From: a virus
Lineage: Duplodnaviria > Caudoviricetes
Direction: 5' to 3' (one strand)
Virus record (IMG/VR): IMGVR_UViG_3300037424_000993
Coordinates: 1-64,000 of that record
DNA: 64,000 nucleotides
In this document: positions 1 through 29,146 of the stretch, in pieces
How positions within the stretch are numbered: position 1 is the first letter of the stretch
Layout: every line of letters begins with the position of its first letter
The notes under the pieces: model-generated
Database searches by the model: none
Told to the model about the DNA's origin: nothing
What the model saw: the letters and a program-made list of their open reading frames with translations, nothing else
Program-made: the position numbers and the translations under genes

Positions 1-289
1 TGCGAAACAACAACCCTGGACGCGCTCCGAGCGACTGTTTGCGTATCAAAGAACCCCAAAACTTTGCAGCTTCTCTCGATAGCCTTGCCCGAAGTTGGCG
101 CATGGTCTCGCTGTGAGCTGTTAGCGGTGGGGCTTCGGGCCCAGGTGCATTGATTACGATCCACTCCCGCCTTGTGTTGGGCGTCGTGTCGCCACCGCGC
201 CCGCAGAATGAGCAGTACACTCCGGGCACTCCACATCCAGTGCCGCAGTAGTGGTACTGGACAGTTGGTCCGTTGCTAATGGCAATCAC
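1..289 (-). CDS. Hypothetical protein, runs off window edge
   Basis: GTG at 289 overlaps the upstream TGA; the frame stays open to position 1; Cys-rich N-terminus. Confidence 0.35.
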   Translation of the reverse strand, partial: MIAISNGPTVQYHYCGTGCGVPGVYCSFCGRGGDTTPNTRREWIVINAPGPEAPPLTAHSETMRQLRARLSREAAKFWGSLIRKQSLGARPGLLFR

Positions 290-486
290 ATCGCCCTCCA
301 ACACCCCTGGCACAACACCCCAACCAGCCTACCGCCTCGCCACAATAGCGCACGGTCGCTGTTCTGCCGTTGGGGCCTGCGGCAGAGGAAGCACGGGTGA
401 GTTCCGAGGCGCGGGCGCGGGTGGTTGAATTCGGATGGGTGGGGTTTCGCATTACGTCTCCTAGTTGTCCCAGAGTTCTTCGTCAT
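286..486 (-). CDS. Small CxxC...CxxC protein
   Basis: CFLC and CQGC motifs; stop overlaps the next start; start uncertain. Confidence 0.35.
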   Translation of the reverse strand: MTKNSGTTRRRNAKPHPSEFNHPRPRLGTHPCFLCRRPQRQNSDRALLWRGGRLVGVLCQGCWRAM

Positions 487-1501
487 CGGTTCCGTTTTCG
501 CGCGCCATCTCGTCCGCCATCTGCTCTAAGCGTTCTTGTTCAGCGTCCTTCACTGCGTCGAAACAAGCGGAGTTATCGTCCCACTTCATAGAGTAGAAAC
601 GCTTCGCCACACCGTTCTTCACCTTGTCGAGTAGTACGGCGCGCTTTCCTGGTTCCACTCGCCACCCTCCGTGCTTGCTCTTGATGCCGTTCTCGGGCAC
701 GAAACCTAAAGCCACAACTTCCGCTGCGTTCGATACGTCGCGCGAGTCGCGAATCGAGTGCTTATCGGGATGCTTCTTGCCGCCCTTTGCGTCGCTGACC
801 GTGATCTGACTGTAGATGACACCAGCAATGTTCTCGCTCTTGACCGCATCAGTGAGCACGCGGGCTATATACGTTAGCGAATTGCGTCGGTCCTGTTGTG
901 CCCTTTGGTTGTCGAATGCCTGAAGGTAGTCGTAGAGCACAAGATCGATCTTCTCGAGCCGGATCAATTTCTTAACCTGCTGCCCTGCCCATTCTGCGCT
1001 CTTGCCACGAGCGTCGAGGAACACCGGAACGTCTTCGGATACTGCTGCTACTCGTGCCACCTGCGCTTGTTCGTAGTCATTGAGGTTTTTCAATAGCAGC
1101 CGTGACGCATTCACGCGGGAACGCCGGCACATCAAACGATCGCCGTAGAGCGATTCTGCGTCTTCCGCAGACACGATGAGACACCGTTTGCCAGCTTTAA
1201 TATTCTCGTCAACGAGCATCACGCCGAGAGAGCTCTTGCCCCAGCTGGTGTCAGCTCCAAACACCCAAACGAATCCAGGCATGACGCCGCCGGTGTCGTT
1301 GTCGATTTCAGCGTGCCCGAACGTGCACACCTTTACTCGCTCTGACTTTGCCCGTTCTTCGGCGCCCTGCAACAGCTGACGAACCGTCAATAGACGCTTC
1401 GCGTCGTCGTCGGCTCTGCGCGCTGCATCTGTTATTGGTACGAGCTTACCGCCTACTCCGCCAGATTGGTGCTGCTCTGCCAGGTCTTTCTCGTTGCTCA
1501 C
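461..1501 (-). CDS. DnaB-like replicative helicase (ATPase domain)
   Basis: Walker A GADTSWGKSS, Walker B LVLYDYLQ, IYSQ motif; follows the primase. Confidence 0.85.
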   Translation of the reverse strand: MSNEKDLAEQHQSGGVGGKLVPITDAARRADDDAKRLLTVRQLLQGAEERAKSERVKVCTFGHAEIDNDTGGVMPGFVWVFGADTSWGKSSLGVMLVDENIKAGKRCLIVSAEDAESLYGDRLMCRRSRVNASRLLLKNLNDYEQAQVARVAAVSEDVPVFLDARGKSAEWAGQQVKKLIRLEKIDLVLYDYLQAFDNQRAQQDRRNSLTYIARVLTDAVKSENIAGVIYSQITVSDAKGGKKHPDKHSIRDSRDVSNAAEVVALGFVPENGIKSKHGGWRVEPGKRAVLLDKVKNGVAKRFYSMKWDDNSACFDAVKDAEQERLEQMADEMARENGTDDEELWDN

Positions 1502-12119: not shown

Positions 12120-12550
12120 GAGGCACCGCCTTTCCGCGGAGGCCACGGATTGACCCGCACAGCTCCCCTGTATTGCCCGTAGTGAATAAGGCAAAGGTGA
12201 CGATCCTCGCCTACTTCATGAGCGCAGTCGGGACACAGCGGAGCGTCGCAGGTTTTCCCGCCGCCCATTGGGTAATCGCAGAGCAGATCGGCAAAGTAGC
12301 CGCAGGTGCAAACGTCGAGCTCGCCAGGCTTGAAGCTGCCACAGATGAACATCTCAGCGCCGCCGCCTGCCATTGTTTTCTCTCTTGCAATCTGGACTTC
12401 CAAAATCTCCTTTGGAGTGCGCGTTACAAGCTGCCCTTTCACAACGTGACGCTTCTCGCTCTCGGAGGCCGGGTAACCATGGCCCCATCCCAATGCCTCT
12501 TTGGCTTCGTACAGAGACGAAGGGCGCGACTTGCCTTTCAGGCAGGTCAC
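12116..12550 (-). CDS. Zn-finger hypothetical protein
   Basis: CTCG..LCD..CDAPLCPDC..LCLIH; GTG overlaps the integrase stop. Confidence 0.6.
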   Translation of the reverse strand: MTCLKGKSRPSSLYEAKEALGWGHGYPASESEKRHVVKGQLVTRTPKEILEVQIAREKTMAGGGAEMFICGSFKPGELDVCTCGYFADLLCDYPMGGGKTCDAPLCPDCAHEVGEDRHLCLIHYGQYRGAVRVNPWPPRKGGAS

Positions 12551-14010
12551 TGGGCGCCTCCGGAGCAGGCTGTGATGCCCCACTTCTGACCGGGGATAAC
12601 CTTGAGTCGGTGGGCTGTCTTGACGAGCCCCCGCAGAGGTGCCAAATACTGGGTGCGGATCCCACTATGGCCAGTATTCGCGTGCTCTAGCGAGTCTCCG
12701 CGAGGCGAAAACTCCGAAAACCCTAATAGTTGTAGCCGAAACCTGACCCTTGAGGTGCTAGTGGGGTAACTCCCGTGGAGGTTCGAGTCCTCTCCTTCGC
12801 ACTGCAGGAAAACAGCTACTTTAGGGCGGCCCGCGCACACCCCGAAAACGCGCTTTTCGACGCCGCCCCCAGTATCGCCCCCACTATTGCCGCTCACCAG
12901 GTCGACCACTTCGGCGGCCTGCTTCTCGTCGGCGTGGCTGTAGCGATTGGTCGTGCTCGCCTGCTTGTGGCCCACCAGGAAACCCACGCCCAGGGTCCGG
13001 CCGCCGCTTTGGTCCATTAACTCGGTGGTCCGAGCATGGCGCATATCGTAGGCCTTCACCCGGCTGGCGATGTGCTCGGGGATGCCGGCGGCCCGAGCCG
13101 CCTGCCTGAGCGACGTGCGGTAGTCTAGTGTCCGGACCAGCTGGCCCCCATTCCGGAGCTGCCCGAGCCGGTGGATCTCGGCGTGGTAGCAGCCCTCGAG
13201 CAGTTCGCACGCGTGCGGGCTCAAAGGCACCTTTCGCTCCCAACGATTTTTATCGACATCCTCAGTCACGTCGAGGTGGCGCTGGCCCGGGTGCCAGTGG
13301 GTGCCAACGCGGAAGCCATCCCAGAATCCCGGGCGTAGCGCCGTCTCGAACATCAGCGCGAAGTAGGGCCGGAGCGGCCATTGCTCGCCGCTCTTTCGGT
13401 TTTTGCGGCAAAGGTCGGGAAGGTGCGGAATCAGCTGGCGTGCCGTCGCCGCGGTGAATCCCTTGGTCCAGCCGCTCGGCGCTTGCTTAGCCTTGGTACC
13501 CAAGCTCTTGTGCGGGCGGTCAGGGAAGCGTGGGATCTGCCCGATCCAGCTCTTGATTTCAGCGAACTTCAACACCTGCATCAAAGTGCTCAGCTCCTTT
13601 TGCACCGTGCTGTACCGGACGCGCTTCAGGCGCTCGGATTGGTACGATGCGAGCGCTCCGCGCGTGACGTCGCACAGCCGCTTGAATCGCGGCAAAAGGT
13701 GCACGCGCAGATGAATCTTTCGCAGGTTCGCTGTTCGCTCCGTGATTTCACCACCGGACTTTTCGGCCAGGTACGCCGCTGCCACCTCCGACAGTTTCGC
13801 TGTCGGATCGTTGCCTGTCTGAACCTCGTTTTTCCACTGTCCGGAGTAGACCCAGTCGAGCCGATCCGCCTTCCACCGCGTAGCGCGCGCCAGATCGTCC
13901 GCTGGAATGACGGCCGTCTTGAAGTCGTGTCTCGTGCCCTCGTGCGTAAATCGCAAGCGCCACCATTTGCCGGTGTGCGTAAGCTGCGGATCGCCAGGCT
14001 TGCGCGCCAT
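12547..14010 (-). CDS. int: Tyrosine integrase containing attP in its 3' coding region
   Basis: TALRPG (R), YDMRHAR (RH), LVGHKQASTTNRY (H/Y); adjacent excisionase. Confidence 0.92.
   Translation of the reverse strand: MARKPGDPQLTHTGKWWRLRFTHEGTRHDFKTAVIPADDLARATRWKADRLDWVYSGQWKNEVQTGNDPTAKLSEVAAAYLAEKSGGEITERTANLRKIHLRVHLLPRFKRLCDVTRGALASYQSERLKRVRYSTVQKELSTLMQVLKFAEIKSWIGQIPRFPDRPHKSLGTKAKQAPSGWTKGFTAATARQLIPHLPDLCRKNRKSGEQWPLRPYFALMFETALRPGFWDGFRVGTHWHPGQRHLDVTEDVDKNRWERKVPLSPHACELLEGCYHAEIHRLGQLRNGGQLVRTLDYRTSLRQAARAAGIPEHIASRVKAYDMRHARTTELMDQSGGRTLGVGFLVGHKQASTTNRYSHADEKQAAEVVDLVSGNSGGDTGGGVEKRVFGVCAGRPKVAVFLQCEGEDSNLHGSYPTSTSRVRFRLQLLGFSEFSPRGDSLEHANTGHSGIRTQYLAPLRGLVKTAHRLKVIPGQKWGITACSGGAQ
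12645..12888. repeat. Five arm-type integrase site candidates, (C/G)CCA(G/C)TAT, flanking the att core
   Basis: 12645-12653 (inverted), 12661-12669, 12670-12678, 12868-12876, 12880-12888. Confidence 0.65.
12749..12801 (+). other. attP core = 3' half of tRNA-Leu(GAG)
   Basis: Anticodon loop TTGAGGT, stem strand GCTAG, long variable arm, T-arm GGAGG-TTCGAGT-CCTCT, acceptor strand CCTTCGC-A. The 5' tRNA half is absent. Confidence 0.9.
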
Positions 14011-15688: not shown

Positions 15689-15756
15689 GCGTGAAACTCC
15701 TAAACTAGCCGCTAACCGCGGCCGGAAAGATTGCGCCGCTCCCGGGCGGCCGTTAG

Positions 15757-16106
15757 TGGACCCGCTGGGAATCGAACCCAGGTCCGCGAAGCCTACAAGC
15801 CATCGTCGTCCACATGCTTGGTCGAGGTACGGTCGGCTAGCCTCGACAGCCGTTGACGCCAGGGGGTCGGCGCCTCCACCACCCGCTATTTCTCGCTGGT
15901 CGCTCGCGGGATTGTTACCAGCCAGCCCGTGTGGTGACGCCGCTGAGATACTCGGGCTCCTTGCCCAGCGACGGCTTAGGCCGCTTGCGCGACTTCGGCG
16001 ATTGCGTTGGTATTCGCAATTGGAGTTGCTCATTTGGTCAAGCCGGTACGAGCGCCGGCTGCATGCACGATGACCCTTCGATTCCACGTCGAAACCATTC
16101 GGGCCC
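15757..16106 (-). ncRNA. ssrA: tmRNA, tag peptide ANTNAIAEVAQAA*
   Basis: 5' GGGCCCGAATGGTTTCGAC; 3' CTGGGTTCGATTCCCAGCGGGTCCA; acceptor stem with G3.U70; GCATGC/GCATGT helix; tag ORF 16017-15976. Confidence 0.95.
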
Positions 16107-16113
16107 AGAACGG

Positions 16114-16187
16114 TTGCGGGAGCCCGATTTGAACGGGCAACCTCTTGGTTATGAGCCAAGCGAGCTACCGGATTGCTCCATCCCGCA
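16114..16187 (-). tRNA. tRNA-Met(CAT), initiator-like
   Basis: Complete cloverleaf of 74 nt; anticodon loop CTCATAA; T-loop TTCAAAT; A11-U24; CCA not fully encoded. Confidence 0.93.
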
Positions 16188-19175: not shown

Positions 19176-19183
19176 GAGTAGGG

Positions 19184-19217
19184 TACTCTTACAACCGTAA
19201 GCGTAACCTGTCAACCG
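19184..19217 (-). promoter_or_regulatory. Leftward promoter/operator (copy 1 of the 34-bp inverted repeat)
   Basis: TTGACA-17bp-TAAGAG; exact reverse complement of 19261-19294. Confidence 0.75.
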
Positions 19218-19260
19218 TCTATTTTGAGTCGCCTACTATCGACACGAGACCAGGAACTCT

Positions 19261-19294
19261 CGGTTGACAGGTTACGCTTACGGTTGTAAGAGTA
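19261..19294 (+). promoter_or_regulatory. Rightward promoter/operator (copy 2 of the 34-bp inverted repeat)
   Basis: TTGACA-17bp-TAAGAG containing the palindrome CTTAC-N4-GTAAG. Confidence 0.75.
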
Positions 19295-19299
19295 ACCGT

Positions 19300-21328: not shown

Positions 21329-21993
21329 AAGACTTTTTCAGAAAACAATGGGACCAGGTGCCCACGGTGTGGATCGATACAGAAACGACTGGCGTCGTTG
21401 CTGGCGTTGATCGCGCGTGCCAGGTTGGTCTGGCGAGATTCGAGAACGGCAAGTGCGTTGACTCGAACGTATGCGAGATCAACCCTGGTATCCCGATCCC
21501 GCCAGAGGCCACCGCGATTCACGGCATTGTAGACGCTCAAGTTGCTGGCGCTCCGACTATCGCGGAGTTTTTTGCAGACCCGCGCACGGTTCAGTTGCTC
21601 GAAGGTGCACAGCCCGCTGCATACAACGCACCTTTCGACCGGCAATTCGTTCCACCGTTCGGTGACTGGACCTGGCCATGGCTCGACTCATTGTCGATCG
21701 TTCGTGTTTCGGATCGGTTCGCCAGCGGAAAGGGTCGCCACAAGCTGGAAGCGGCGTGTCAACGCCACGGCGTAGCATTACCGAACGCGCATGATGCCGG
21801 TTCTGATGCGCGCGCCGCTGGAGAGCTGTTCTATGTCCTGGTGCCGAAGCTAGCAGGACTGGAGCGCATCGCGGTCAGCTCTGACTGTTCGCTCGGCTGG
21901 CTTCTCTCGTGGCAGCGCCACCGTGAAGCTGACGAGTGGTTCCGATTTCACGAGTGGCTTAGCAGGCAGCCGCCGATGGACGGTGCAGCATGA
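21325..21993 (+). CDS. DnaQ-like DEDDh 3'-5' exonuclease
   Basis: IDTETTG, AYNAPFD, HDAGSDA. Confidence 0.9.
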   Translation: MKDFFRKQWDQVPTVWIDTETTGVVAGVDRACQVGLARFENGKCVDSNVCEINPGIPIPPEATAIHGIVDAQVAGAPTIAEFFADPRTVQLLEGAQPAAYNAPFDRQFVPPFGDWTWPWLDSLSIVRVSDRFASGKGRHKLEAACQRHGVALPNAHDAGSDARAAGELFYVLVPKLAGLERIAVSSDCSLGWLLSWQRHREADEWFRFHEWLSRQPPMDGAA

Positions 21994-22925
21994 CAGCAGC
22001 ACAGCAGACAGGACGCCCGTACGTCGTGATCGGTTCCGCCGAAGATGCCGACTGGCACAACGCTAGGCGCGGCGGCATAGGCGCCAGCGAGATTGCCGTC
22101 GTCATGGGCGAGTCTCAGTGGCAATCGATTTTGGAGCTCTACTACAAGAAAACCGGCGAGTACTCACCGGAAGAGACCGACGAAAGCGAGTGGCTGCTGT
22201 GGGGCAGAAAGCTTGAGGATGCGATCCTTTCCGAGCTGTTCGAGCGCGCAGGCGCCACGTGCGACAGCACGCAGCCTCACCTGCGCAGCACGGTGCACCG
22301 TTGGTGTCTCGCTACTCCTGACGCTATGACAACGCACGGAGAGCCAGTGGAGGCGAAAAACATAGCATGGGGCTATGACCCAATGGAATGGGCCGAGCGC
22401 ATCCCAGAGAAGTACTACCTACAGACCCAGCAGCAAATGCTGGTCACCGGCGCCAATCGTTGCCTGTTCGGCGCGCTGCTTTGGGGCTCCAAACTGATCT
22501 GGGAATGGGTGCCACGAGACGAGGCAACGATCGCGCGCATCATCGATGCTGGGTCCGCGTTTTGGTCTCGGGTGCAACGCCGTGACCCACCGCTGAGCGA
22601 CGGTCACCCGGGCGCGCGCAAGGTGCTGGGCATCCGCGCAAACGTTGATGAGGATGTCGAGTTGTACGAGCCAGAGATCGAGGAAATGCTAGCGTCGTAC
22701 GAGAACAGCAACACGGACTTGAAGGACTTGCGCGGACAAGTGCGCAGGCTCGAAAAGCAGCGTGACGCCTCAATGGACGCCATCGCGCAGAAGATGGGCT
22801 CATCCCGCAAAGGGTACACCGCCACCGGTTGGTCATTCCGATGGGAAACGGAAGAACGCCGCGGTTACACCGTAGAACCCAAGACGATCGAACGATTCAA
22901 AATCAAAGCGCCAAAGGCGCAGTAA
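21990..22925 (+). CDS. YqaJ-like viral recombinase exonuclease
   Basis: WHNARRGGIGASE, WGRKLE, ATPD, VEAK, Y..QTQQQM. Confidence 0.9.
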   Translation: MTAAQQTGRPYVVIGSAEDADWHNARRGGIGASEIAVVMGESQWQSILELYYKKTGEYSPEETDESEWLLWGRKLEDAILSELFERAGATCDSTQPHLRSTVHRWCLATPDAMTTHGEPVEAKNIAWGYDPMEWAERIPEKYYLQTQQQMLVTGANRCLFGALLWGSKLIWEWVPRDEATIARIIDAGSAFWSRVQRRDPPLSDGHPGARKVLGIRANVDEDVELYEPEIEEMLASYENSNTDLKDLRGQVRRLEKQRDASMDAIAQKMGSSRKGYTATGWSFRWETEERRGYTVEPKTIERFKIKAPKAQ

Positions 22926-22934
22926 GGGAGAGCA

Positions 22935-23831
22935 ATGGCAGCAGTTAAAACACAGCGCAACGGAGAGATCGTGCGCAATGGGAACAGCGGAGGCAGTGGC
23001 GGCGCAGAAGTCGGCCTCGCTAAGTTCGTCGAGAATCACGCGCAGGACTTCGCGCGAGTTCTGCCCAAACACATGACGCCTGACCGCATGGTGCGCCTTG
23101 CGGTTAGCGCCGTTCGCACAACTCGCCACCTCGACAAGTGCACTGTTCCAAGTTTCGCGGGCGCCATTATGGCGTGCTCAACGTTAGGGCTGGAGCCCAA
23201 CACGCCGCTCGGCCACGCGTATTTGATTCCCTTCAAGAACAACAAGAAGGGGGGAATTTACGAGTGCCAACTTATCGTTGGGTACAAGGGTCTTACAGAG
23301 CTCATGTATCGGTCTGGCATCGTGGCTAGTGTAAAATGCAATGCTGTGTTCGAGGGCGACGAGTTCAGCTACGAGCTGGGGCTGCATCCCGACATCATCC
23401 ACCGGCCACACTCGGAGGCTGGTCGTTGCGACCCCAACAAACTCACGCACGTCTACCCGGTTGTGCAGCTGCGAGAAAAGGGGCTGGAGCCAATATGGGA
23501 TGTGCTCAGCCGTGACCAGATCGAGCAACGCCGAAGGCGCAGTCGCGCCAGCGGAAGCGGTCCGTGGGTCACTGACTACGAGGCAATGGCGAAGAAAACG
23601 GGCATTCGCTCGATCGCGACGTGGGTGCCTAGCAGCGCTGAAAGAACAGCCCCGCTCGCGGCTGCCATAGGCTACGAAGAAGCCAACGAACGTGGCCAGG
23701 GGCAGCGTGCAATCGCCGCTCTCGGGGACGCGGCGCAAGAGGCGCTCTACGACCTGGGAGCGTTCCCGACGGAAGACGATGAGGATGAGGAACACGAAGC
23801 CCCGTCACGCGAACCCGGGGAAGAGGGATAG
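22935..23831 (+). CDS. recT: RecT single-strand annealing recombinase
   Basis: LGLEPN.LGHAYLIPF, IVGYKG, MAKKT.IR. Confidence 0.92.
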   Translation: MAAVKTQRNGEIVRNGNSGGSGGAEVGLAKFVENHAQDFARVLPKHMTPDRMVRLAVSAVRTTRHLDKCTVPSFAGAIMACSTLGLEPNTPLGHAYLIPFKNNKKGGIYECQLIVGYKGLTELMYRSGIVASVKCNAVFEGDEFSYELGLHPDIIHRPHSEAGRCDPNKLTHVYPVVQLREKGLEPIWDVLSRDQIEQRRRRSRASGSGPWVTDYEAMAKKTGIRSIATWVPSSAERTAPLAAAIGYEEANERGQGQRAIAALGDAAQEALYDLGAFPTEDDEDEEHEAPSREPGEEG

Positions 23832-25849: not shown

Positions 25850-25938
25850 CCGCTCCCCTGCCGCTCACTTCGGTCTGCGGTGGTGATAGCGGACATTGAT
25901 GGACAGAGCCCCCTTGGGGGCGGAAAGTGAGATTGATA

Positions 25939-26625
25939 ATGCAATCAAACACGAAACACTCAGCCGAGTGGCTACAACATTCGGCGGTCGAGGCGGGGCA
26001 AGCCCTCCGCGAGGCGGAGTATCAGGCACAGCGGGCAGCGCTGCTCGTCGGCAGCGTCTGCGTTGGATGCGACGACTACTCGTCCCAGTTTTTTAGGCTC
26101 GATCGCCGGCCGCCGGCCGAGCTGCAATCACCCACATCATTCGAGCGCTGCAGTCTACACAGGCTGCCGGACGGCGATTGGCTGGAGATTCTCCGGGGCA
26201 GCGCGTCGTGGGTGCGGCACACGTACGACCGCAGTTATGCGCTCGACCGAGCTCGCCGCAGGCAGATCGGCGGGTACGTGCTTCGCAGCGATGTCGCAGC
26301 GGCGTGCCGCGCTGTTATTGAGGCCGGGGCGAACCAGCTCAAAGTGTGTACGATCTGGGGTCACAACGCTTTTTCTGACGGCTCGCACGTAGCCAGTTAC
26401 AGCGCTGAGCGCTCGCTATACGCAGACGAGAAGGCTCAAGAGTGGATTGCATGTCTGCGCGAAGCGCGTGATATGCACCCCGGCAGCCATGGCGTGATAG
26501 ACGCAGCTATCGCCGCACTGAGCACCCCGGATGCGCTTCGCGCCTACCCCGCTCCCATTGACGCGGAGTTGTGTGCCCTGATTCGAGAGCTTGAAGCTGA
26601 CCTCGACGAGTCAGCGACAGCCTAA
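25939..26625 (+). CDS. Hypothetical protein
   Basis: Follows repeat copy 1. Confidence 0.6.
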   Translation: MQSNTKHSAEWLQHSAVEAGQALREAEYQAQRAALLVGSVCVGCDDYSSQFFRLDRRPPAELQSPTSFERCSLHRLPDGDWLEILRGSASWVRHTYDRSYALDRARRRQIGGYVLRSDVAAACRAVIEAGANQLKVCTIWGHNAFSDGSHVASYSAERSLYADEKAQEWIACLREARDMHPGSHGVIDAAIAALSTPDALRAYPAPIDAELCALIRELEADLDESATA

Positions 26626-26731
26626 GAACTCTACCCGGGCGCCTCAATGGGGCGCCTCTGTAGTGGACTTAGACGGCCCGACGATTCCCACGATTGAGCC
26701 CCCTTGGGGGCGTAAAAGGACTCATAGAATC

Positions 26732-26920
26732 ATGACAAAATCAACCCGCTTCGAGCTCCGCTTGACACCCGAAGAGTTCGCCCGCTGGAACGACACCGCC
26801 GAGTCCGAGGGTCGCACGCTGGCCGGCTGGGTCCGCTGGGTGTGCGGTCAATACTCAGCAAAATCAAGGGGTTCGAAGAAATCGACACGGCGGACGAAGA
26901 AAGTGTCCCGAGGGGCTTGA
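26732..26920 (+). CDS. Ribbon-helix-helix-like DNA-binding protein
   Basis: TRFELRLTPEEFARW..AESEGRTLAGWVR; follows repeat copy 2. Confidence 0.65.
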   Translation: MTKSTRFELRLTPEEFARWNDTAESEGRTLAGWVRWVCGQYSAKSRGSKKSTRRTKKVSRGA

Positions 26921-26944
26921 CTGTACGGACAATATCCGTATACT
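26917..26944 (+). promoter_or_regulatory. Sigma-70-like promoter with overlapping palindrome
   Basis: TTGACT-16bp-TATACT; TACGGA-N5-TCCGTA; ATG 7 nt after the -10 box. Confidence 0.6.
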
Positions 26945-26951
26945 GTACAAC

Positions 26952-27206
26952 ATGAGCAACGCAGCAATCCCCCAGACAATCGAAGCAGCCATCTCAGCCC
27001 TTGTAGACCAGGACGCGGCCAAATGGGGCGAGTCGGAGCGCGAAGCCAGCCGAGCGCACCACGCTAACCGTACCTACGGCCTGGCGCTCAATGAGCTAGC
27101 GAATCGCGCCTTCATGGCCGACTCGCCCGGCGCTGCCGACCTGGCCAAGGCAGCCAAAAAAGCGCTCACCAGATCCGATCGGGCCGTGCTCCGTGCGGCC
27201 AGATAA
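26952..27206 (+). CDS. Hypothetical protein, probably leaderless
   Basis: No SD sequence; promoter immediately upstream. Confidence 0.6.
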   Translation: MSNAAIPQTIEAAISALVDQDAAKWGESEREASRAHHANRTYGLALNELANRAFMADSPGAADLAKAAKKALTRSDRAVLRAAR

Positions 27207-27232
27207 ACCCCAAGAAAGGTAGGACTACCAAC

Positions 27233-27514
27233 ATGAAATCGTATCCCGAGTGGCTGCAACATTCAGCGGTCGAACTGGAGTCCTGGGAAGACGCGGCAGC
27301 CCAAGCCGGCGATGCTGCGACAATGCTGATTGCTGGCATAGCGCGAGGCTGTCCCGCACGCGGCCTGCTCGGTATGACCGCGGAAGATGTCGAGCGCGAG
27401 TGGCCGACCGTTACGGACTCGTCGTCGGGCGACGAGATAGTTGCATTATTGCGGTCGCCTGCACAGGCGTTAGCGATTGCTGAATCGTGGGGATCACCAT
27501 ACCCGATCGACTGA
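27233..27514 (+). CDS. Hypothetical protein
   Basis: AGGA RBS; shares EWLQHSAVE with the gene at 25939. Confidence 0.6.
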   Translation: MKSYPEWLQHSAVELESWEDAAAQAGDAATMLIAGIARGCPARGLLGMTAEDVEREWPTVTDSSSGDEIVALLRSPAQALAIAESWGSPYPID

Positions 27515-27558
27515 GCGGCGATCCAAGAGCCCCCTTGGGGGCGGAAAGTGAGAGAATT

Positions 27559-27891
27559 ATGAGCGAAACTGAGGTACCCGCGAGCCCTAGCAGGTTAGCT
27601 GCCGTCGTTCGGGGATACAGTTGCGCAGCGACGGACGCTGCCTGGCGCGCTGCTATAAATCGGTGGTTTGCCGGTCGGTGTGCGAATGGCATCACGTACC
27701 CAGAGTCCGTGTTTGCGTTGCGCGAGGGGCTGGCGTGGGCGCGCCCCGGGGAGGCCCCTCCGGATAGCGTGCACCGATACATGCGAGGATGGCATGAGGC
27801 GTCTAGATGGCGTGGCGGAGGCATGGCCCCAGAGGACGTATTGAGAGCGATCGCGGCTAACGCGGGCCCGGATGGGCCCCGACCCACTTGA
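27559..27891 (+). CDS. Hypothetical protein
   Basis: Follows repeat copy 3. Confidence 0.55.
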   Translation: MSETEVPASPSRLAAVVRGYSCAATDAAWRAAINRWFAGRCANGITYPESVFALREGLAWARPGEAPPDSVHRYMRGWHEASRWRGGGMAPEDVLRAIAANAGPDGPRPT

Positions 27892-27951
27892 TGCCTTCGA
27901 GCGATTCCCACAATTGAGCCCCCTTGGGGGCGTAAAAGGACTCATAGAATC

Positions 27952-28206
27952 ATGACAAACCCAATGAACAAACGAGCAAAACGCGCGGCAGACGCTGCAG
28001 CAGCAGAGCGCGATCGCATCGATCACGGCCCGGGCAGCGAGGGCCAATGGAAGCACGACAATGCGGCTCACAACGCGCAGGGGCGTGCAGAGCAAGAACT
28101 AGGGCTCCAGCTTGATTGCGATGAGCAGGCGGCCGACGAAGCGGAGCATGCCGCGTTTCTCGCGGAATTCGAACTCGAAAAGCGCCGCGCAAGCCGCTCG
28201 CGCTAA
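27952..28206 (+). CDS. Hypothetical protein
   Basis: Follows repeat copy 4. Confidence 0.6.
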   Translation: MTNPMNKRAKRAADAAAAERDRIDHGPGSEGQWKHDNAAHNAQGRAEQELGLQLDCDEQAADEAEHAAFLAEFELEKRRASRSR

Positions 28207-28362
28207 CGCTCTCCCCACTGCCGCACAGGCAGCTTAGAAATGCTGGGTGTTGTTTTCACTCACTGCCGAATAGGCAGCTAGCAGTAGCGGGCCCGGATGG
28301 GCCCCGACCGACTTGATACTACAGTCGCTATTGAGCCCCCTTGGGGGCGGAAAGGAACGAGA

Positions 28363-28701
28363 ATGATTGACCAGCTTCAAGCCCGCATCCAATACTACCG
28401 CGATCTTGGCGCGCGATACTCTGCCCGCACGACCGGGCTGTCTGAGATCGCGCTCCGTGAGAGAGACCACGTGTTCGTGCGTGCCTCTGGTCGCCGGGGC
28501 GCCGCGTCGAGAATCTTGGACGCAGCTGCTGCGGCCGACGAACCGTTGCGCACCGGCATGATCGAAGCCGCTCGGATCGTCCTGGACTCTATCGACGAGC
28601 TCGGGATGCAGGACGGTTTACCATCCCAGGAAACGCTGGATCGCGAAACCGCGGCCGCTCAGCGGGTACTGACGAAGGCGTCAGGATATGTCGAGGACTG
28701 A
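28363..28701 (+). CDS. Hypothetical protein
   Basis: Follows repeat copy 5. Confidence 0.6.
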   Translation: MIDQLQARIQYYRDLGARYSARTTGLSEIALRERDHVFVRASGRRGAASRILDAAAAADEPLRTGMIEAARIVLDSIDELGMQDGLPSQETLDRETAAAQRVLTKASGYVED

Positions 28702-28768
28702 GCTCCCGCTCCATCCTGGCCGTCGCCAGGCCCATTGCCCCGGAAGGGCCCAGAAAGGACGAACCACG

Positions 28769-29044
28769 ATGAGCAAACATTTGGAGCGAGCAGTGGAATT
28801 AGGCGTAGAGGCCCAGTTCCACGCCGCGCTAAAGTGGACCGACGAAATGGCCCGCACTGCGCAGGGAAAACCTTGCCAACTTTGCGCGCTTACGAGGGTC
28901 CGCAATAGCGCAGACACTCTTGCGGTGGTCGTCGGCTTCGGCGCAGACGGTGGCGGTCAAGCAACCCTGCTGGCTGTGTGCGCGACGTGCGCGCGCGGCC
29001 ACAACGTTGTGGCGCGCCAAGCAGTCGGCGCGGTGGAATTGTGA
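28769..29044 (+). CDS. Hypothetical protein with CxxC pairs
   Basis: AAAGGA RBS; CQLC, CATC. Confidence 0.55.
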   Translation: MSKHLERAVELGVEAQFHAALKWTDEMARTAQGKPCQLCALTRVRNSADTLAVVVGFGADGGGQATLLAVCATCARGHNVVARQAVGAVEL

Positions 29045-29146
29045 TGCGCGGCCCCTGGTACCTCACCTGCCCAACAAAATGACGAAAGCCCCCGAGCCGC
29101 TGGGGCAGGGGGGCGAGAGAGCTGGGTAATTAATGTGAGTGGTATA

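Follow-up and report, generated by a model that had tools for sequence, protein, structure and literature searches.

The DNA analysed here, referred to as the window, is the first 64 kb (positions 1 to 64,000) of the 75,517-bp IMG/VR virus record IMGVR_UViG_3300037424_000993 (Duplodnaviria; Caudoviricetes). It carries a plus-strand array of eight open reading frames (ORFs), g1 to g8 (62-228 amino acids), punctuated by a short repeated hairpin element which we call the connector (Table 1). The 17-mer core of the connector, GAGCCCCCTTGGGGGCG, occurs five times, all on the plus strand and all within 2.4 kb, with each copy lying shortly before an ATG, and no further copy was found across the whole 75,517-bp genome. 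The five copies had been pointed out in an original prediction made from the letters of the window, and both their number and their placement before start codons were confirmed. When a 14-mer was searched with two mismatches allowed, those five sites only were recovered, as compared to a mean of 0.92 in shuffled sequences, and 0 of 100 shuffles reached the observed count. The distance from core to ATG was 16, 19, 15, 19 and 13 nt for copies 1 to 5, whereas the distance from the upstream stop codon to the core was 57, 71, 12, 25 and 127 nt. Because the former is near-fixed (13-19 nt) and the latter ranges from 12 to 127 nt, the connector belongs to the downstream start. No connector copy was present before g3 or g4.

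Copies 1 and 3 are identical over 28/28 nt, and copies 2 and 4 have 63 nt in common at 95% identity, running through ATGACAAA into the first codons, where about 57 bp had been claimed. A common 31-nt unit, GCGGGCCCGGATGGGCCCCGACC[C/G]ACTTGAT (97% identity), stands before both copy 4 and copy 5 and corresponds to the GGGCCC-GGAT-GGGCCC element also described in the prediction. A sixth, degenerate connector heads g8, and its homologue in a related metagenome contig (L089, see below) has an intact stem, GCCCC-GGAA-GGGGC.

Table 1. Features of the cassette array and its operon (positions are those of the window).
Feature	Position	Strand	Remarks
RecE-like exonuclease and RecT-like annealing protein	21990..23831	+	Rightward operon of the array; candidate recombination machinery
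Connector copy 1	25906..25932 (core 25906-25922)	+	GAGCCCCCTTGGGGGCG and GAAAGTGAGA leader; g1 ATG at 25939
g1	25939..26625	+	228 aa, ORFan
GC hairpin GGGCGCC-N-GGCGCC	26637..26656	+	After g1 stop; without U-tract
Connector copy 2	26696..26722 (core 26696-26712)	+	3' leader GTAAAAGGACT; g2 ATG at 26732
g2	26732..26920	+	62 aa, ribbon-helix-helix-like, basic tail
Sigma-70-like promoter TTGACT-16-TATACT	26917..26944	+	Before g3; inverted repeat ACGGACA/TATCCGT between hexamers
g3	26952..27206	+	84 aa, ORFan; own promoter (predicted)
g4	27233..27514	+	93 aa, ORFan
Connector copy 3	27527..27553 (core 27527-27543)	+	12 nt past g4 stop; g5 ATG at 27559
g5	27559..27891	+	110 aa, ORFan; 3' end encoded by GGGCCC hairpin unit
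GGGCCC-GGAT-GGGCCC hairpin unit, first	27862..27892	+	-13.7 kcal/mol, plus CGACCCACTTGAT; 24 nt before copy 4
Connector copy 4	27916..27942 (core 27916-27932)	+	g6 ATG at 27952
g6	27952..28206	+	84 aa, ORFan; CRISPR-repeat unit directly downstream
Type I-F CRISPR repeat pair	28213..28285	+	Between g6 stop (28206) and connector copy 5; candidate CracrIF
GGGCCC hairpin unit, second	28287..28317	+	16 nt before connector copy 5
Connector copy 5	28333..28359 (core 28333-28349)	+	Leader GGAAAGGAACGAGA; g7 ATG at 28363
g7	28363..28701	+	112 aa, ORFan; in window, L089 and L090, different next gene in each
Sixth connector, degenerate	28737..28760	+	GCCCC-GGAA-GGGC then AGAAAGGA; heads g8
g8	28769..29044	+	91 aa, ORFan, CxxC...CxxC; other genes instead in L089 and L090
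12-codon gene remnant	29044..29082	+	MRGPWYLTCPTK followed by stop; much longer gene MRGPWYITRAAV... in L089

The structure of the connector was compared among 15 copies from four genomes, namely the window and three related contigs (L088, L089 and L090). The 5-bp stem GCCCC/GGGGC was kept in 97% of the cells of this comparison, and the loops were CTTG in ten copies, GGAA in three, and GCGAA and CACGAA in one each, so that loop length ranged from 4 to 6 nt; one closing pair was G-T in DNA, or G-U in RNA. Among these loops, CUUG and GGAA (the latter of the GNRA type) are well-known stable tetraloops of RNA. The folding energy of every loop variant is about -9 to -11 kcal/mol, and the connector hairpin was present in the centroid fold of every sequence context. 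A purine-rich Shine-Dalgarno (SD) sequence follows the stem, with an ATG 10-20 nt past the stem in 15/15 copies, and the flanks 5' of the core are not conserved. A consensus scan detected no sigma-70-like promoter at or near any connector, the sole such site in the array being the one that precedes g3. No T-run or U-tract was found after the stem at any copy, GGAAAG standing there instead, and none of the copies was listed in the terminator scan. Since there is no sigma-70-like site, no conservation of the upstream flanks and no T-run, the connector appears to be neither a promoter nor a canonical terminator; we read it as a predicted promoter-less hairpin coupled to a ribosome-binding leader.

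The three relatives are short metagenome contigs from a scan with the motif followed by AAA, which retrieved four contigs; the fourth (L087) carries an unrelated palindrome and was set aside. Segments of L088, L089 and L090 were 93-100% identical to cassettes of the window, and were arranged in other orders with breakpoints at the motif. L090 reads g1, connector, g2, g3, connector, g7, a new gene, a variant connector, a second new gene, connector, g5 and a g4 variant (g4'), with identities of 93% over the stretch from g1 through its connector to g3, 97% for g7, 99% for g5 and 100% for the body of g4, which has another N-terminus and no connector. The first new gene of this contig, after g7, encodes 94 amino acids; the second encodes 61, follows a GGGCCC unit and the variant connector, and has its TGA stop inside the next connector. 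L089 runs g5, variant connector, g4', connector and g7, after which come a new gene of 164 aa and the gene whose remnant stands at 29044 in the window, here in a longer form. In L088, g1 and a connector are followed by two new 66-aa genes and g3; g2 is absent and the motif is kept. The three contigs add five new genes in all, and identity to the window varied from 100% to about 87% according to the cassette, a spread that is as expected of a mosaic.

The sequences on either side of the core also reassort. With 5' flanks denoted by capital and 3' leaders by small letters, the combinations B-b, B-a, B-f, C-c, C-e, D-d, E-d and G-c were seen; the copy in L088 joins the 5' flank of copy 2 to the 3' flank of copy 1, and leader d stands behind two different 5' flanks. 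Because 5' and 3' flanks combine freely, the crossovers lie within the core that the copies have in common. In four other sequencing runs, Logan contigs break at copies, three of the joints lying at connectors and one representing a further context of g4'; g2, g4 and g8 are without cover in some runs, to which no weight was given. In the joint 27555>28332 (run X7), two full connectors stand 12 nt apart. At 475-545 (-) of L088, two half-leaders without a hairpin, CGGAAAGTGAGATGAGACCGATGA and then CGGAAAGTGAGACTAGACC-ATG, stand in tandem before a new gene. These half-leaders and the double connector of run X7 look like scars of cassette loss. Further breakpoints were located in the SD leader, in the GGGCCC hairpin unit (which doubles as a breakpoint in L090), and in N-terminal codons. 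Circular joints were not seen in the Logan contigs, which is weak evidence as contigs cannot exclude circles. Judged from these assembled sequences, the connector is a point of exchange, replacement and reordering of cassettes between co-circulating relatives. The shufflable array that had been predicted was thus borne out, since gene order is not fixed: the three contigs and the Logan contigs present other orders, replacements and chimeric leaders.

Searches elsewhere returned few matches. Megablast found no close relatives of the region in the phage collection, and the exact 17-mer had one unrelated single match in IMG/VR. With the looser pattern GAGCCCCN{3,7}GGGGNGGAAAG, six matches were obtained there, each as a single copy in unrelated phages, and no arrays. 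Two of these, otherwise unrelated viral contigs (L091 and L093, from IMG/VR records G002 and G003), carry one GAGCCCCGCGAAGGGGTGGAAAGGAT each, identical over 26 nt to the variant connector of L089; a match of this length is too long for chance, and transfer of the module between phage lineages is possible. Relatives of the RecT protein (53% identity or less) were without the motif. An origin from a host repetitive extragenic palindromic element was rejected after a scan of the GTDB representative genomes gave one chance match, in Azospirillum, and so was a mimic of a CRISPR repeat, as a search of Rfam with E up to 10 gave no CRISPR-DR or other family at any copy. A likeness to repeats of type I-C or I-E was dropped as well.

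The products of g1 to g8 belong to no PHROG or Pfam family save for one sub-threshold match of g2, and the five new proteins of the relative contigs are ORFans as well, bringing the count to 13/13 cassette proteins. Codon differences to the relatives were synonymous and non-synonymous in a ratio of about 1:1, with zero frameshifts. As no frame is broken and the two kinds of difference are nearly equal, g1 to g8 are real, fast-evolving genes.

g1 represents a rare family, with 17 remote homologues among 1.84 billion representatives. Its AlphaFold2 (AF2) model was obtained at a pLDDT of 93.7 and a pTM of 0.86, and fold searches of the PDB gave no convincing match, the best rows being unrelated proteins (Foldseek E 0.39, VIA Z 5.5). 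g1 may be a new fold or family within an anti-defence island. Identification of g1 as AcrIF24, also of 228 aa, was rejected: BLASTP gave E = 6, a PDB sequence search was negative, and the AcrIF24 structure was listed by neither fold search. A protein search for IMG/VR loci encoding g7 or a g1 homologue found none. In PDB sequence searches g2, g5, g6 and g7 matched nothing below E = 0.8.

The ribbon-helix-helix (RHH)-like protein announced in the prediction is g2, and the assignment gains weak support. The Pfam NikA-like match (E 3e-4, 21.3 bits) falls below the 27-bit cut-off, and the AF2 monomer consists of an extended N-terminus and two helices (residues 13-25 and 30-45) at a pLDDT of 71. 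g3 is probably leaderless, because its ATG lies 7 nt after the -10 hexamer of the predicted promoter. At 165-205 (-) of L088, g3 follows another promoter-like site, TTGACC-17-TAGGTT, at equal distance. By analogy with Aca-type control of anti-CRISPR genes, g2 may regulate g3.

The N-terminal codons of g1 and g4 (25948-25991 and 27230-27273, +) agree at 80% over 44 nt, including EWLQHSAVE, the N-terminus of g4 having been copied from a g1-like sequence. g4 in the relatives has a shorter N-terminus, MTHDELESW..., and occurs in three other contexts. Because the relatives bear this different, shorter form, N-terminal coding segments are also swapped by recombination. To judge from the remnant at 29044-29082, which adjoins the hairpin of the convergent operon (29085-29114), the array is truncated at its distal end.

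Directly after g6 lies a pair of type I-F CRISPR repeats. Repeat 1 (28213-28240) matches Rfam CRISPR-DR4 at 36.0 bits over 28216-28240 (gathering score 35), with 25/25 positions identical to positions 4-28 of the family; repeat 2 is degenerate (28258-28285; 19.4 bits over 28263-28279), and the spacer between them is 17 nt (28241-28257). A homologous repeat pair in L090 scored 37.7 bits and has a 27-nt spacer, which falls in the size class of bacterial CreA/CreR. Over 61 nt (28217-28277), the element agrees at 79-81% identity with units of two Pseudomonas phages, LESphi3 and IME307. These units stand 56 nt downstream of the annotated AcrIF24 gene in LESphi3 and of the equivalent 687-bp gene in IME307.

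Viral CracrIF are crRNA-like anti-CRISPR RNAs with spacers of 17-21 nt, as against 23-27 nt in bacterial CreA/CreR and 32 nt in crRNA; they often adjoin acrIF24, and acrIF24-linked units occur in Beta- and Gammaproteobacteria (Liu et al., 10.1101/2024.10.29.618823). Racr and solitary repeat unit (SRU) elements are found in clusters together with acr genes (Camara-Wilpert et al. 2023, PMC10651486). Like CracrIF and Racr, the element at 28213-28285 consists of two I-F repeat-like units with a short spacer, located on a phage, outside CRISPR-cas and among small genes; no cas genes were found on the map of the 75.5-kb genome. Unlike CracrIF, it is not adjacent to an AcrIF24 homologue (none was found by BLASTP or by PDB sequence search of g1), and the spacer in L090 is 27 nt. 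We regard it as a candidate viral crRNA-like anti-CRISPR RNA (CracrIF), in which case RNA-based anti-CRISPRs would gain a new and divergent member from beyond the Pseudomonas-type phages, and the host would be expected to have a type I-F system. As this putative I-F decoy lies inside the array, and in view of the clustering of Racr and SRU elements with acr genes, the context suggests that the array is most likely an anti-CRISPR or anti-defence island. The accessory, anti-defence role that had been predicted is therefore supported indirectly, by the putative decoy. This support does not extend to the co-regulation that had likewise been predicted.

The genome carrying the array is called complete, with a 127-bp terminal repeat, and is that of a temperate myophage encoding a tail sheath, baseplate hub, tape measure, lambda-type portal, head protease and integrase. 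The portal is ~50% identical to portals of phages of Gammaproteobacteria, and a search with the portal protein in the protein atlas gave no host clue. The stretch occurs in sequencing runs of soil and sediment metagenomes. Nearly all genes are on the minus strand, with the exception of an island at ~19.3-29.1 kb. Starting from a 37-nt mirrored repeat, this island encodes a DnaQ-like exonuclease, RecE, RecT and an HNH endonuclease (500 bp upstream of the array), with the cassette array last; the RecE and RecT genes lie 2-4 kb upstream of the array in a common operon. The arms of the 37-nt inverted repeat (19181-19297) are 97% complementary and 43 nt apart, and the repeat separates a divergent leftward helix-turn-helix gene from the rightward RecET/array operon. 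We take it for the likely immunity switch, from which the array is probably transcribed. The sole integrase (12547-14010; PHROG phage integrase families phrog_1 and phrog_216), a tRNA-Leu phage integrase, is 12 kb from the array on the opposite strand. A phage-borne tmRNA (15754-16187, -; Rfam 95.2 bits) adjoins a tRNA-Met (64.6 bits).

We favour, at a probability of roughly 60%, the interpretation that the connector is a portable hairpin-SD element which serves both as a translation-initiation module and as a recombination homology patch for accessory cassettes. In the proposed mechanism, a GCCCC-loop-GGGGC hairpin of about -10 kcal/mol, followed by an SD and by a start codon 10-20 nt on, would head most of the accessory cassettes, which would form the far end of a rightward early DnaQ-RecE-RecT-HNH operon. 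The hairpin in the mRNA would shield the ribosome site from upstream sequence, acting as a putative insulator that renders the initiation region independent of context, and it might also protect the 5' side of each cistron as a stabiliser. Any gene landing behind a connector would be expressed. The cassettes, which the CRISPR-decoy context suggests are anti-defence genes, would be exchanged through short-homology recombination by the phage RecE/RecT with no dedicated site-specific enzyme, crossovers falling within the 17-28 nt of identity. Homology-driven exchange is preferred to a single cleavage site because the breakpoints are spread over the SD leader, the GGGCCC unit and N-terminal codons. 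If so, genes behind a connector in relatives would be candidates in their own right, and the connector could provide a handle for the discovery of anti-defence genes.

Several observations weigh against this interpretation. There is no covariation in the stem, the support for structure coming from loop turnover and one G-U pair, and the identity of the stem could equally reflect sequence-specific reading by a protein or recombinational homogenisation of the copies. The comparison with relatives is limited to three short contigs. The connector is not obligatory, as g3, g4 and one copy of g4' in L090 lack it, and 17-28 nt is short for RecET-type recombination.

An alternative, which we consider unlikely, is that the invariant hairpin is a specific tag, read by a factor of the phage or the host that is dedicated to it. 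This factor, whether a regulator that binds RNA or a nuclease or recombinase specific for hairpins, would both switch on and mobilise the anti-defence cassettes. Were this true, the array would constitute an integron-like platform for gene capture and expression in a phage, without an integron integrase.

The hairpin may instead punctuate the transcript, as a terminator or attenuator without U-tract or as an RNase processing site that cuts the long early transcript into units of cassette size, with shuffling a by-product of the repeats. It is intergenic, G+C-rich and co-oriented with transcription, other G+C hairpins without a U-tract follow g1, g5 and g6, and the promoter-early stem-loops (PeSLs) of T4-type phages do act as terminators (PMC2839356). 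However, the stem is followed by GGAAAG and never by a T-run, the terminator scan lists no copy, no promoter lies downstream to restart transcription of the next gene, and the position of the connector is fixed to the downstream start and not to the upstream stop. This explanation is doubtful.

Its inverted-repeat symmetry, the five perfectly conserved copies and the presence of an RHH-like gene within the array would also suit a duplex DNA operator, in which GCCCCC-TT-GGGGGC is bound by a dimeric repressor (g2 or a prophage repressor) and the array is silenced, as by the stoperators of cluster A mycobacteriophages. A folded single strand is favoured over such an operator because the loop varies from 4 to 6 nt, the orientation is single and a closing pair is a wobble pair: a dimer on duplex DNA would not tolerate this change of half-site spacing among homologous copies, and one orientation throughout would not be called for by a near-symmetric core. 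Moreover, no promoter is adjacent, L088 keeps the motif without g2, and a better candidate site for g2 is the inverted repeat in the g3 promoter. We find the operator quite improbable.

No more credible is site-specific cassette recombination, in which an extruded single-stranded DNA hairpin would be recognised by a dedicated enzyme, in the manner of attC, or nicked by the HNH endonuclease. An invariant stem with a free loop is what a protein-read hairpin would show, breakpoints are very tightly placed, an HNH gene is close upstream, and the authors of the PeSL work raised this idea for their GGGG...CCCC stems (PMC2839356). Yet neither within the array nor next to it was an IntI-type integrase, transposase or HUH enzyme found, the breakpoints are not confined to the hairpin, and the failure to see circular joints is, albeit weakly, in the same direction.

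That each copy is or contains a promoter read by the RNA polymerase of the host or the phage, so that the cassettes are independent transcription units as with true PeSLs, whose stem-loop can sit between or over the -35 and -10 boxes (PMC2839356), is highly improbable, given the negative consensus scan, the unconserved sequence upstream of the core, the initiation inside an ORF that -35/-10 pairs from within the motif would entail, and the lack of any gene of the size of a phage RNA polymerase. Promoter readings that place the -35 in TTGAGC or TTGGGG were discarded for inconsistent spacers and starts inside ORFs, and a hairpin promoter of the N4 type for want of a giant virion RNA polymerase gene.

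Three known systems invite comparison. Integron attC arrays resemble this one in that promoter-less small genes are parted by a folded inverted repeat at which cassettes are exchanged. Unlike an integron, the phage array has no IntI integrase, attI or Pc, and the connector lies 5' of the gene with a ribosome site, is far shorter than attC and has no extrahelical bases.

The original prediction had likened the motif to the start-associated sequences (SAS) of cluster K mycobacteriophages. The SAS is a 13-bp, asymmetric, non-hairpin sequence of the GGGATAGGAGCCC type that contains the SD and lies 3-7 bp from the start; 11-19 copies are spread over half the genome, each stays with its gene family, no role in shuffling is described, and a function in the initiation of translation has been suggested (Pope et al. 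2011, PMC3203893). The inverted repeats of the ESAS do not support RNA pairing (PMC3203893). Strict orientation, a position just upstream of (mostly ATG) starts of non-structural genes and absence from the rest of the genome are shared features. The analogy is loose beyond these, as the connector differs in sequence, has its hairpin core 13-19 nt from the start and carries a separate SD, whereas the SAS is itself the ribosome site, forms no hairpin and ranges over half a genome.

The closest known kind are the PeSL cassettes of T4-type phages, in which a module of ~100 bp combines a consensus sigma-70 promoter with terminator activity (Arbiol et al. 2010, PMC2839356; Comeau et al. 2014, PMC4122927). 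Connector and PeSL alike are intergenic repeats that contain a polyC/polyG stem-loop, end on the 3' side with an SD and a start, and stand before ORFans in a plastic region; with both, close relatives differ at the module by gene insertion, deletion and replacement, as L088, L089, L090 and the Logan joints illustrate here. Unlike the PeSL, the connector has no sigma-70 promoter, AT-rich upstream region or terminator tail, it is conserved over 17-28 nt (at the most 63 nt) and not over about 100 bp, and it belongs to a temperate myophage with a lambda-type portal and RecET and not to a T4-type phage. PeSLs also give rise to mini-circles by recombination between neighbouring modules; for the connector array, no back-joints were listed in the assembled contigs. 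Calling it an undescribed system was too strong, as its behaviour is that of PeSL cassettes minus the promoter (PMC2839356, PMC4122927): we class the connector with the PeSLs, as a variant that lacks the promoter, and crossover within the element is documented here with unusual clarity. The PeSL idea is thereby widened to a connector in which one leader of 17-28 nt would be both a ready-made expression signal and a crossover point, and the array displays, at nucleotide resolution, the turnover of accessory, probably anti-defence, genes in a temperate phage outside the T4 group.

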